NCBI GenBank assembly: GCA_000004695.1
Contig: CM000154.2
Span: 3,520,001-3,584,000, forward strand
Origin: Dictyostelium discoideum
Lineage: Eukaryota
Direction: 5' to 3'
DNA: 64,000 bases
Part shown: piece after piece, positions 54,815 through 58,312 of the stretch
Numbering within the stretch: the first letter of the stretch is position 1
How the letters are laid out: each line of letters opens with the position of its first letter
Notes under the pieces: generated by a model
The model's input: only the letters and a program-made list of their open reading frames with translations
Databases searched by the model: none
Told to the model about the DNA's origin: nothing
Made by a program: the position numbers and the translations under genes

Positions 54815-57800
54815 ATGAGTGGTAGGGATGAATCATCGCGTTCACGTGATTTTTCAGATGAATATTTTACAAATGAATCACTACAACAACAATTAAATGA
54901 AAAATCACCAATTTTATCATCATCATCATCATCACCAACAACAACAACAACAAACCCATCATCAACTAAATATTATTCAAATATTTTAAATAAAGTTTCA
55001 AATTTAGTTCAGAATACAGCATTAGATACAATTGGATTTAATGATTTAATTCATAGTCCATTTTCAAGTAATAGTAATAATAATAATAATAATAATAGTA
55101 GATTAATTACATATTGTGATTTTACAGCATCAGGTAGATCATTAGAAAGTATTGAAGAATATTTATTAAATGAAGTTATACCATTATATGCAAATACTCA
55201 TACATTATCAGATGCAACTGGTTTACAAACTACTCTATTTCGTAGAGAAGCTAGAGAAATTGTAAAAAGAGGTTGTCGTGGTAGTAATGTTGATGATTCT
55301 TTATTATTCATTGGTTCAGGTTCAACTGCAGCAATTAATGCATTAATTCATATTTTAGATATTAAATATTTATCAAGTATAAATAAAAAACCATTAATTT
55401 TATTAGGTCCATATGAACATCATTCAAATATTTTACCATGGAGAGAAGCTGGTGCTGAAGTTTTAACTTGTCCTGAAAATAATAATAGTAAAGAGGGAAT
55501 AAGAGGAGGAGTTGATTTAAATTTTTTAGAAGAAATTTTAAAAAAATATTCAAAATTAGATTCAAAAAGATTAATTATTGGATCATTTTCAGCAGCATCA
55601 AATGTTTCTGGTATAATTGAAGATACAATTAAAGTTACAGAGATATTAAAAAGGTATGGTGCATTATCAATTTGGGATTACGCATGTGCTGCACCATATA
55701 TACCAATTGATATGAATCCATTCAATGATAATAGATATAAAAAAGATGTTATCTTTTTTTCACCTCATAAATTTTTAGGTGGTGTTAGTACACCAGGTGT
55801 AATGTTAATTAAAAAGAAGCTATTAAACAATAATATACCACATCGTCCAGGTGGTGGTTCAGTATTATATGTAACTTCAAATCAAACAACTTATTTAAGT
55901 AATTTCGAAGAGAAAGAAGAAGCTGGTACTCCCGATATTGTTGGTAGTATTCGTTGTGGTTTAGTATTTCAATTAAGAGAACATATTGGTATTGATAATA
56001 TTTATCAATCTGAAATTGAACATAGTAATCATTTAAGATTAAAATTAAATAAAATTAAAAATTTAGTTTTATTAGGTGATAATTCAATAAATCAATTCGA
56101 ACAACAACAACCACAACAACAATTACCAATTATTAGTTTTTTAATTAGATATGAAAATGATCCAACATTATTTTTACATCATAATTTTGTAGCATCATTA
56201 TTGAATGATTTATTTGGTATTCAAAGTAGAGCAAGTTGTGCATGTGCAGGACCATATTTACAATGTTTATTAGGATTGAATCAAGAGGATAATCAAAATT
56301 TATTAGAATCAATATTTGAAAAACAAGAGATTATTAGACCTGGTATGGTTAGAATTAATGTTAGTTTCACTCATACATTACAAGAGATTGATTTCATAAT
56401 TAAAGCCATTGAATTCATTTGTTTAAATGGTTGGAAATTTATGCCACTCTATACTTTTGTTGTTGCATCAGGTGAATGGAAACATAGAAGTAAATTAAAT
56501 AAATTACCAGATAGACGTTGGTTAAGTAGTATTACTTATAATAATAATAATGGTAGTAATGGTAATGGTAAAATGAAATATCAATCAAAGAGAAAACAAA
56601 TCGATATTTCAGATTGTAATAATGATCCTTCTTTAATTATGGATAAATTACATTCAATTAAAAATAGTTATCTTGAAGAAGCTAATCAAATCTTAACAAA
56701 TCTATTATCAAATCCTCCAAAAATTTTACCTGATCAATCTTCAATGTTAACAAATGATTCAAATAAATTAAGATGGTTTCCATTACCAACTGATATTTCT
56801 TTAATTTTACAACAACAACAAGAACAACAATATGAACAATTATATTCAGATTTTAATAATTCAAAAACAATTTTATCACCAACACTTGGTAGAGAAATTA
56901 TAATTAAACCTCATAAACCATTATTACCTGGTACTTTGATTTTAAAACAAAATACTTCATTATCAACATCAATTGATTTGAATAATCAAATTTATCCAAT
57001 AATAAAAGTAATTAATTCAATTTCAAATGTAGATAATAATAATAATAATAATATAAATAGTAATGATTTAAATAATTTGGATAATTCAAATAATTCAAAT
57101 ATTATTAAAAATAATAATGAAGATAATAATAATAATAATAATAATAATAATAATAATAATAATAATAATAATAATAATAATAATAATAATAATAATAATA
57201 ATAATAATAATAATAATAATAATAATAATAATAATAATAATAATAATAATAATAATAATAATAATAATAATAATAATAATAATAATAATAATAATAATCA
57301 AGTTTGTTTATTAAAGCCAAAAGATATTAGTGGATTAGTTGAAAGTAAAACTTGTATAAATTGTTTCCATGATCATACAGTTGATAATAAAAATAAAAAT
57401 AATAATATTAATAATAATAATAATAATAATAATGAAAGTTGTAAAGAATGTAGATCATGTGAATGTGTTTCATTTGTACCAAAAATGGAAGGTAGTAAAA
57501 AAGAAAGAGAAAATTTACAGAAAAAGATAAATAGTAATATTGTACAAACAATATTAAATTATGAAATGATTAAAGATGGTGATAAAGTTTTGGTTGGTGT
57601 TAGTGGTGGTAAAGATAGTTTAACATTAATTCATACATTATTGGATTTAAGAAGAAGATCAAAAGCAAAATATACAGTTGCAGCATGTACAGTCGATCCA
57701 CAATCACCAGACTATGATCCAAGTCAATTAAAGAATTATTTCGCTTCACTTGGTGTACCTTATTTTTATGTTAGTCAAGCAATTATGGAATCTGCAAAAT

Positions 57801-58312
57801 CATGTATGTTAAGAGAAGGTATTGAAAATAAAGCAAGTATTTGTGCCTATTGTAGTAGAATGAGAAGAGGTATAATGTATGATATTTGTAGACGTGAAGG
57901 TTATAATGTTTTAGCATTAGGTCAACATTTAGACGATTTATCAGAGTCTTTCTTAATGTCTGCTTTCTATAATGGTATGTTAAGTACAATGAAAGTAAAT
58001 TATCTAAATGAACAAGGTGATGTTAGAATCATTCGTCCATTGGCAAATTTAAGAGAGAGCCAAACTAGATTATTCGCAAAAGTAATGGGTCTACCTGTAA
58101 TCTCTGAAAATTGTCCTGCTTGTTTTGAAGCTCCAAAAATTAGACAATCAATGAAAAAATTATTAGCCGCTCAAGAAAATGTTAATCCAATGATTCATCA
58201 CACTTTATATAAAACTATGCAACCTCTATTAACAGTTGATAAAACAAATAGAACTAGTGGTAGAAGTTTAGATATTAAAAATATTAATTCTAATAACAAT
58301 AATAAAGATTAA
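54815..58312 (+). CDS. Fusion protein of 1165 aa: an N-terminal class-V aminotransferase / SufS-CsdA-like cysteine desulfurase domain and a C-terminal TtcA-type PP-loop tRNA thiolation domain, separated by a poly-Asn linker of about 60 residues
   Basis: N-domain: ITYCDFTASGRSLESIEEYL...ANTHT, PLP-lysine motif FFSPHKFLGG, and catalytic-cysteine loop SRASCACAGPY (compare SufS RSGHHCA). C-domain: KVLVGVSGGKDSLTLIHTL, CAYCSRMRRGIMYDICRREG, ALGQHLDDLSESFLMSAFYNGML, IIRPLANLRESQTRLFA and NCPACFEAPKIRQ. These align block by block to E. coli TtcA ([67 protein letters not shown]). A CxxC-rich stretch (CINCFHDH...CKECRSCECV) precedes the PP-loop. Confidence 0.8.
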   Translation: MSGRDESSRSRDFSDEYFTNESLQQQLNEKSPILSSSSSSPTTTTTNPSSTKYYSNILNKVSNLVQNTALDTIGFNDLIHSPFSSNSNNNNNNNSRLITYCDFTASGRSLESIEEYLLNEVIPLYANTHTLSDATGLQTTLFRREAREIVKRGCRGSNVDDSLLFIGSGSTAAINALIHILDIKYLSSINKKPLILLGPYEHHSNILPWREAGAEVLTCPENNNSKEGIRGGVDLNFLEEILKKYSKLDSKRLIIGSFSAASNVSGIIEDTIKVTEILKRYGALSIWDYACAAPYIPIDMNPFNDNRYKKDVIFFSPHKFLGGVSTPGVMLIKKKLLNNNIPHRPGGGSVLYVTSNQTTYLSNFEEKEEAGTPDIVGSIRCGLVFQLREHIGIDNIYQSEIEHSNHLRLKLNKIKNLVLLGDNSINQFEQQQPQQQLPIISFLIRYENDPTLFLHHNFVASLLNDLFGIQSRASCACAGPYLQCLLGLNQEDNQNLLESIFEKQEIIRPGMVRINVSFTHTLQEIDFIIKAIEFICLNGWKFMPLYTFVVASGEWKHRSKLNKLPDRRWLSSITYNNNNGSNGNGKMKYQSKRKQIDISDCNNDPSLIMDKLHSIKNSYLEEANQILTNLLSNPPKILPDQSSMLTNDSNKLRWFPLPTDISLILQQQQEQQYEQLYSDFNNSKTILSPTLGREIIIKPHKPLLPGTLILKQNTSLSTSIDLNNQIYPIIKVINSISNVDNNNNNNINSNDLNNLDNSNNSNIIKNNNEDNNNNNNNNNNNNNNNNNNNNNNNNNNNNNNNNNNNNNNNNNNNNNNNNNNNNNNNNNNQVCLLKPKDISGLVESKTCINCFHDHTVDNKNKNNNINNNNNNNNESCKECRSCECVSFVPKMEGSKKERENLQKKINSNIVQTILNYEMIKDGDKVLVGVSGGKDSLTLIHTLLDLRRRSKAKYTVAACTVDPQSPDYDPSQLKNYFASLGVPYFYVSQAIMESAKSCMLREGIENKASICAYCSRMRRGIMYDICRREGYNVLALGQHLDDLSESFLMSAFYNGMLSTMKVNYLNEQGDVRIIRPLANLRESQTRLFAKVMGLPVISENCPACFEAPKIRQSMKKLLAAQENVNPMIHHTLYKTMQPLLTVDKTNRTSGRSLDIKNINSNNNNKD
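57122..57298. repeat. Uninterrupted (AAT) tract of about 59 units inside the CDS, encoding poly-Asn
   Basis: Direct reading. It is flanked by further interrupted AAT/GAT runs at 57040-57120 and 57400-57440. Confidence 0.95.

Follow-up and report, generated by a model that had tools for sequence, protein, structure and literature searches.

Can a single eukaryotic gene both mobilize sulfur from cysteine and install it in transfer RNA (tRNA)? The question is raised by a stretch of 64,000 nucleotides of Dictyostelium discoideum DNA (GenBank assembly GCA_000004695.1, contig CM000154.2, positions 3,520,001 to 3,584,000 of the forward strand; hereafter the window). At 54815..58312 of its plus strand lies an open reading frame (ORF) in which an original prediction, made from the letters alone, had recognized a cysteine desulfurase fused to a TtcA-type tRNA thiolase. 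To our knowledge, 2-thiocytidine (s2C) was seen as a prokaryote-only tRNA modification, with no eukaryotic enzyme known, until a preprint of September 2026. This preprint (bioRxiv 10.64898/2026.09.27.754811, dated 28 September 2026) mapped s2C at position 32 (s2C32) on Aplysia tRNA-Lys-UUU, termed it the first eukaryotic s2C, and described a fused 'IscS-TtcA' gene of 1177 amino acids with continuous RNA-seq coverage, found in 28 molluscs and 'more distant species', the fusion protein being the sole TtcA homologue reported in Aplysia. The same work aligned the desulfurase half to IscS without placing the catalytic cysteine, called the inter-domain region unconserved and raised linker cleavage as a possibility for the Aplysia protein. 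Earlier reviews had placed s2C32 in bacteria and archaea only (PMC5372739).

Because the mollusc fusion is already described in that preprint, the dictyostelid gene represents no new type of system but a new member of a recently recognized family of eukaryotic desulfurase-TtcA fusions. Judging from its sequence, the encoded protein is very probably bifunctional, uniting a desulfurase with a PP-loop, iron-sulfur (Fe-S) thiolase. A literature search for earlier descriptions of the fusion in oomycetes or Dictyostelium returned none that was relevant ('ttca' also matches DNA strings).

Both halves lie in one uninterrupted reading frame

The fusion gene is a complete, single-exon ORF of 1165 amino acids that runs from ATG to stop with neither a stop codon nor a frame change between its halves, and it is bounded on both sides by AT-rich intergenic flanks. 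Base composition across the window is ~14-29% GC, and as stop codons are frequent in DNA of ~22% GC, an open frame of 3.5 kb is far beyond chance. Pfam searches placed Aminotran_5 at residues 100-524 (E = 7.6e-33) and the ATP_bind_3 PP-loop domain at residues 924-1093 (E = 9.3e-15). The claim that one ORF holds both halves was borne out, by the unbroken 1165 residues as well as by more than 100 orthologues of the same build, complete ORFs from Trinity transcriptome assemblies among them. A gene-model artefact was rejected, since the halves share one frame without a stop codon and the arrangement recurs in transcript-derived ORFs.

Checking the translation located every motif that had been quoted from this locus: SPHKFLGG (residues 316-323), RASCACAGPY (472-481), SGGKDS (930-935), CAYCSRMRRG (1010-1019), GQHLDD (1036-1041), IIRPLANLR (1072-1080), CPAC (1100-1103) and an upstream cluster of cysteines and histidines (847-884).

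The C-terminal half is a TtcA-family thiolase domain

A PP-loop domain of the [4Fe-4S]-type tRNA thiolases occupies residues 893-1142 (57491..58240, plus strand, as are all parts of the fusion gene), as delimited by the NCBIfam TtcA model, by sequence and Foldseek matches to the PDB and by an AlphaFold2 (AF2) model. The domain scored 205 bits on the TtcA model NF007972, compared with 62 for TilS-N, 57 for TtuA and 38 for NcsA, the last against a cut-off of 500 bits for the NcsA model NF047749, which was not reached. The original prediction had assigned this half to TtcA rather than to NCS6/CTU1, and the scores uphold it; a CTU1/NCS6 identity was accordingly rejected.

In Escherichia coli, TtcA carries an essential [4Fe-4S] cluster bound by Cys122, Cys125 and the second cysteine of a C-terminal pair, and its reaction in vitro requires cysteine together with IscS, ATP and dithiothreitol (Bouvier et al. 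2014, PMC4081106). The third ligand, 'Cys222' in the numbering of Bouvier and colleagues, is Cys213 in the RefSeq sequence. Each of these elements has a counterpart in the window protein. The PP-loop motif SGGKDS (residues 930-935, 57602..57619) aligned with residues 47-52 of E. coli TtcA; C1010 and C1013 of the central CxxC (57842..57853) correspond to Cys122 and Cys125; and the C-terminal CxxC, C1100 and C1103 (58112..58123), corresponds to the E. coli CNLC, with C1103 at the position of the third ligand. Both cysteine pairs are invariant in orthologues, and SGGKDS, C1010, C1013 and C1103 were found unchanged across a set of 74. Two further blocks, GHH/GQH-x-DD and IRPLA, match E. coli TtcA as well. 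The block-for-block correspondence that had been proposed thus held for the PP-loop and the cluster cysteines, and C1010, C1013 and C1103 are predicted to bind a [4Fe-4S] cluster.

The AF2 model of the domain has a predicted local distance difference test score (pLDDT) mostly above 90. Its best matches among solved structures, by sequence and by fold, were TtuA and NcsA (Foldseek template modeling (TM) score 0.6-0.66); the PDB holds no TtcA structure.

The N-terminal half is a SufS-like desulfurase module

Evidence from Pfam, NCBIfam, PDB sequence matches, AF2, Foldseek and orthologue conservation identified residues 95-675 (55097..56839) as a cysteine desulfurase module of the SufS type (type II), with the class V, fold-type I architecture of pyridoxal-phosphate enzymes. 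SufS/CsdA cysteine desulfurases ranked first in NCBIfam (TIGR01979, 106 bits), SufS enzymes were the nearest solved structures by sequence (8d8s, E = 1.6e-21), and the full-length AF2 model, with a pLDDT mostly above 90 across residues 50-675, matched SufS crystal structures with TM scores of 0.80-0.87 (Foldseek, normalized by target length). Both the predicted desulfurase identity of this half and its SufS-like catalytic-cysteine loop were therefore confirmed. In fold and active-site residues the module is SufS-like; its family score, 106 bits against a TIGR01979 cut-off of 475, marks it as a divergent subfamily.

Alignment to E. coli SufS with MAFFT resolved the active site. K319 (nucleotides 55769-55771), within the motif SPHKFLGG that binds pyridoxal 5'-phosphate (PLP; 55760..55783), fell on the Schiff-base lysine K226, and C477, in the loop RASCACAGPY (56228..56257), on the catalytic C364 of the short SufS loop 'HHCAQP'; H202/H203, D288, R472 and R513 were paired with H123/H124, D200, R359 and R379, respectively. 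Conservation was assessed in two sets, one of 21 orthologues and the other the 74 already mentioned. All of the 21, or almost all, retain the equivalents of SufS H123, H124, N175, D200, S223, H225, K226, T278, R359, C364 and R379. Most of the SufS active-site equivalents are also invariant across the 74, in at least 90% of which H318 and K319 are retained, while R472, C475, C477 and P480 are present in 74/74. C475, two residues before the catalytic cysteine and in place of SufS H362, is thus a second invariant cysteine. Together these positions give the family signature R-x-x-C-x-C-A-G-P, which in the form R-x-x-C-x-C-[AS]-G-P is kept in 125 of 141 further representatives of the family.

Conservation continues past the end of the Pfam match, through a zone reading 'GWKxLPxY...GEWKH...RRWLxxISY' at residues ~520-575 and helices at residues 605-675, modeled with a pLDDT above 90. 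The helical tail bears an 'LRWF' motif (56768..56779) whose W654 and F655 are invariant in the orthologue alignments (AF2 pLDDT above 90 across residues 600-670). On conservation and the AF2 model, the module is therefore some 150 residues longer than Pfam indicates, ending in a conserved, folded C-terminal extension. Compared with the mollusc preprint, the SufS alignment places the catalytic cysteine, and conservation together with the AF2 model makes residues 520-675 part of the desulfurase module.

The same kind of module, with its C-x-C loop, also occurs in other architectures at 40-50% identity (P0121, P0126, P0154, P0159, P0169 and P0178). It stands alone in the cryptophyte Hanusia and the chlorarachniophyte Bigelowiella, is duplicated in the chytrid Podochytrium, follows two cyclic-nucleotide (cNMP)-binding domains in metagenome-assembled genomes of Planctomycetota, and is found behind GST_C, hemerythrin and cNMP domains and behind DUF4395 and glutaredoxin; at E <= 1e-30, it comprised 1078 representative clusters. 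This distribution suggests a sulfur donor that is reused as a cassette and is possibly regulated.

A variable linker carries an optional Cys/His motif

Between the two modules, residues 676-892 (56840..57490) form a variable, disordered linker, with low identity and many gaps among orthologues and an AF2 pLDDT below 50 across residues 707-891. It includes 58 consecutive asparagine codons (57125-57298, verified in the translation), a dictyostelid-typical tract that is absent from orthologues outside this group.

The original prediction had also pointed to a CxxC-rich segment just upstream of the PP-loop domain as a possible Fe-S or zinc site. The segment exists, as the bipartite motif C847-x2-C850-x-H852-x-H854...C879-x2-C882-x-C884 (57353..57466); the predicted Fe-S ligands lie inside the TtcA domain instead. 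Expressed as a regular expression (C-x2-C-[FWY]-H-x-H, 8-40 residues, C-x2-C-x-C; 50-90 residues upstream of SGGKDS), it was detected in 22 of the 120 best matches to the full protein, among them those of dictyostelids, Plasmodiophora and many other protists, with all seven cysteine and histidine residues invariant in this subset. Animals, oomycetes and Heterolobosea are without it. No Pfam family matched the motif, and no confident fold was obtained, either in the full-length AF2 model or from a motif-only alignment of the 22 sequences (pLDDT 38-66), so that neither a zinc-finger nor an Fe-S reading is supported structurally. The motif may be a metal-binding or persulfide/sulfur-relay element, real but optional.

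The fusion is widespread in eukaryotes and its thiolase half is of proteobacterial type

Relatives of the full protein were judged from its best 120 matches, all of which contain PF00266 and 119 of which combine it with PF01171. Within this sample, the fusion architecture occurs in more than 100 eukaryotic proteins, and every named carrier is a eukaryote. Carriers, which span amoebae, oomycetes, Rhizaria, cryptophytes, Heterolobosea and many invertebrates, include dictyostelids, oomycetes, Plasmodiophora, Guillardia, Acrasis and Percolomonas among protists, and sponges, corals, echinoderms, hemichordates, amphioxus, molluscs and ticks among animals; the closest full-length relatives are a protein in the Joint Genome Institute (JGI) collection (67% identity) and those of Polysphondylium violaceum (61%) and Dictyostelium purpureum (59%). 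An exact-sequence look-up among 15 billion sequences gave no identical entry for the window protein. Several of the complete ORFs come from Trinity transcript assemblies, and in those species a single mRNA therefore encodes both halves. In all 34 eukaryotic proteins sampled for domain order, the thiolase domain is C-terminal. Database names of several orthologues are automatic, 'ttcA' and 'cysteine desulfurase' being examples.

Complementarily, we sought relatives of the thiolase half in 185,579 prokaryotic genomes, using a motif-seeded scan that yielded 218 of them. The best 80 come from Beta- and Gammaproteobacteria, mostly sulfur oxidizers; their identity to the thiolase half is 51-60%, in agreement with the prokaryotic character that had been ascribed to it. 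They are stand-alone proteins of ~250 residues (loci L003-L082; for example, L020 5941-6687, L028 5959-6741 and L075 5926-6699). Neither an ORF resembling the N-terminal module nor a fused or operonic bacterial ancestor was found in the 80 loci, the scan being limited to genes with two sequence motifs. Conserved neighbors of the bacterial genes are unrelated housekeeping genes, encoding DsbD, thioredoxin-like proteins, CutA, Hsp33 and ABC transporters.

In a neighbor-joining (distance) tree with bootstrap, the eukaryotic thiolase domains formed one clade (70% support), inside which dictyostelids, animals and oomycetes each received 100%. The proteobacterial sequences branched next to the eukaryotes, as their sister or as a paraphyletic group, and the branch of E. 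coli TtcA was long. The window domain is about as similar to its proteobacterial relatives (54.5% identity) as to non-dictyostelid eukaryotes (54.2%). From this near-equality and from the tree, we infer that a gene of proteobacterial type was acquired once, long ago, and then fused and inherited vertically, with losses along the way.

A proposed function and its alternatives

What would such a protein do? Desulfurase activity, Fe-S binding, an intramolecular sulfur hand-over and C32 as the target are what we infer from the comparisons above. The SufS-type module would remove sulfur from L-cysteine in a PLP-dependent reaction, leaving a persulfide on C477, possibly assisted by the neighboring, invariant C475. 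The next recipient of this sulfur would be the free iron in the [4Fe-4S] cluster held by C1010, C1013 and C1103, reached directly, via C475 or, in the lineage of the window, via the Cys/His motif. At the PP-loop site, ATP would be bound and C2 of cytidine 32 adenylated, and displacement of AMP would yield s2C32 on some tRNAs. Fusion would thereby give the thiolase its own dedicated sulfur source, replacing a desulfurase of the IscS/NFS1 type that acts in trans. The full-length AF2 model reached a predicted TM score (pTM) of 0.77 with 22% of its residues disordered, a value that is hard to attain if the relative placement of the two folded modules is uncertain, which suggests that they are docked. 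The protein is probably cytosolic; its N-terminus, MSGRDESSRSRDFSDEY..., is acidic and untypical of a mitochondrial presequence.

That the fusion protein makes s2C32 with self-supplied sulfur is, on comparison with characterized relatives, the outcome we regard as reasonably probable, at a lower level of confidence than bifunctionality as such. Support for the tie to s2C32 comes from Aplysia, where the modification has been mapped and the fusion is the sole TtcA homologue reported.

Several observations weigh against this function. The 205 bits scored by the thiolase domain are below the equivalog cut-off of NF007972 (272 bits), as are the scores of the nearest bacterial relatives (200-240 bits); animal and oomycete orthologues reach 201-214 bits, compared with 514 for TtcA of E. 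coli, with which the window domain shares only ~31% identity. For these two reasons, score and identity, we file the domain as TtcA-family, or TtcA-like, and not as a TtcA equivalog. Names of the bacterial relatives vary from 'TtcA' to 'ATP-binding protein', and NCBI now uses the latter only. The link between fusion and s2C32 in Aplysia is correlative, and for the fusion family as a whole no measured activity is on record. s2C is unreported for Dictyostelium tRNA; it could be overlooked in amoebae, because one methods paper recommends using it to reveal bacterial contamination of eukaryotic tRNA and could not quantify it in tRNA of D. discoideum (PMC6356711). On the desulfurase side, SufS R56 and Q203 are not kept, and Pfam and NCBIfam revealed no SufE-, SufU- or CsdE-type acceptor within the fusion ORF. 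Type II desulfurases normally need such a dedicated acceptor, SufE, SufU or CsdE, a role that could fall to the fused TtcA domain or to the Cys/His motif.

The scores, identity and names just given would suit a desulfurase-coupled thiolase that acts on something other than C32, be it another tRNA position or base (2-thiouridine, for example) or another RNA. The domain falls into a clade that is sister to canonical TtcA and has no characterized members; its identity to the ~250-residue proteobacterial proteins of that clade is ~54%, and the lineage-specific Cys/His motif precedes it at a place taken by zinc fingers in TtuA and NcsA. We nevertheless consider a different target unlikely: TtcA is the best-scoring family, by ~150 bits over TtuA and NcsA, all motifs common with E. 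coli TtcA are retained, and the only TtcA homologue reported in the animal with mapped s2C32 is a fusion of this family.

Still less probable, in our view, is that the N-terminal module is not the sulfur donor for tRNA, and that it builds or repairs the [4Fe-4S] cluster of the thiolase or has another PLP-dependent activity, such as that of a selenocysteine lyase or another C-S lyase, with tRNA sulfur arriving through the NFS1 pathway. A desulfurase serves both cluster assembly and sulfur supply in E. coli (PMC4081106), and the occurrence of the module alone or joined to cNMP-binding, glutaredoxin and hemerythrin domains would be expected of a general-purpose cassette. Its distance from the SufS family cut-off, the two unkept SufS residues and the failure to detect an acceptor point in the same direction. 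Against this stand the invariance of the full set of SufS residues that bind PLP and cysteine and form the persulfide, the docking suggested by the pTM, and a domain order kept across very distant eukaryotes, for which direct functional coupling is the simplest explanation. Two separate products, arising from separate transcripts or from cleavage of the linker after translation, are very improbable: the linker is admittedly 216 residues long, unconserved, predicted to be disordered and marked by its asparagine run, and cleavage was raised for the Aplysia protein (10.64898/2026.09.27.754811), but the halves are separated by no stop codon or frame change, both domains share one ORF in more than 100 species, including complete Trinity transcript ORFs, RNA-seq coverage is continuous across the Aplysia gene, and co-translation would couple the two activities even if the linker were cut.

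Genomic context

Upstream of the fusion gene, on the plus strand, lies an ORF with a NUDIX domain, resembling isopentenyl diphosphate (IPP) isomerase by sequence (52538-53251). The first exon of a thymidylate kinase gene (54136-54420, minus strand) diverges from the fusion gene and has in common with it the ~395-bp poly-A/T intergenic tract 5' of the fusion ATG. At the 3' side, a ComC-family membrane protein gene (DUF7035/DUF7034/ComC_SSD; 58349-60565, minus strand) converges on the fusion gene and ends 36 bp from its stop codon. No functional tie of these ORFs to the fusion is apparent. Poly-asparagine tracts and ComC-family neighbors give the genes of the window a dictyostelid-typical look. 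ARAGORN found no tRNA genes in the whole 64-kb window, and hence no local hint of substrate tRNAs.

Significance

Beyond what the mollusc preprint reported, our analysis adds the placement of C477 on SufS C364, a longer desulfurase module, the nearest proteobacterial clade of the thiolase half and a Cys/His motif of seven residues. As the gene is intron-free and belongs to a lineage with routine knockouts and axenic growth, functional questions become directly testable: whether the fusion forms s2C32, whether its own desulfurase is the sulfur source, and whether there is a cytosolic sulfur route apart from NFS1.

Tentatively, and with rather less confidence than would make it our preferred view, we also raise the possibility of an ancient eukaryotic enzyme, perhaps dating to the last eukaryotic common ancestor, that draws cytosolic sulfur from cysteine independently of NFS1 and passes it, within a docked polypeptide, to a TtcA of proteobacterial type. 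If that were true, s2C32 would be widespread in eukaryotes and overlooked there, being treated as a marker of bacterial contamination; the C2H2...C3 motif would be an extra metal or persulfide relay site in some lineages, including that of the window; and the SufS-like cassette, with its cNMP-binding, glutaredoxin and hemerythrin partners, would represent a regulated family of sulfur donors dedicated to particular clients.

Comparison with known systems

The closest known counterparts are Aplysia californica LOC101861551 and its mollusc orthologues, which likewise consist of a COG0520/CsdA-type desulfurase, a long variable linker and a TtcA-like PP-loop domain. They also have the PLP lysine, the cysteine pair in the desulfurase half, SGGKDS and the C...CxxC...CPAC cysteines. 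Mollusc members (P0102, P0110 and P0112) are 36-38% identical to the window protein over 90-94% of its length and fall into the same thiolase-domain clade. The poly-asparagine linker and the Cys/His motif, which animals lack, set the window protein apart.

With E. coli TtcA, the window protein has in common SGGKDS, the central CxxC, GHH/GQH-x-DD, IRPLA, the C-terminal CxxC and the positions of all three [4Fe-4S] ligands. The E. coli enzyme, however, is a stand-alone protein of 311 residues that receives sulfur from a separate type I desulfurase, whereas the window protein has a type II module attached. Closest to the thiolase half are the stand-alone TtcA-like proteins of Sulfuriferula, Thiobacillus, Parasulfuritortus, Thermithiobacillus and Thiofilum, with which it shares the stretches 'SICSxCSRM' and 'ENCPACFE'; unlike the eukaryotic fusion, these proteins have no fused desulfurase, nor is one encoded nearby. 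SufS/CsdA enzymes, such as E. coli SufS working with SufE, resemble the N-terminal module in fold, PLP lysine, His-His pair, Asp200, Arg359, Arg379 and a catalytic cysteine on a short loop. The module differs from them in its second invariant cysteine, an insertion after the loop, the ~150-residue extension and its fusion to a presumed client.

TtuA and NcsA/Ncs6/CTU1, group II of the TtcA/TtuA family, have the PP-loop fold and the three-cysteine [4Fe-4S] site in common with the thiolase domain; in contrast to it, they take sulfur from ubiquitin-like thiocarboxylates (TtuB, Urm1 or SAMP2) and possess canonical N- and C-terminal zinc fingers. More distant parallels exist for the coupling itself. 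In eukaryotic MOCOS, a NifS-like domain is fused to a MOSC domain. In Bacillus subtilis, the desulfurase YrvO is dedicated to one client, MnmA (PMC5372739). Both systems, like the fusion described here, couple a desulfurase to a single sulfur-using enzyme and bypass the general sulfur relay, but their partner domains and products are different, YrvO is a protein separate from MnmA, and the latter works independently of an Fe-S cluster.

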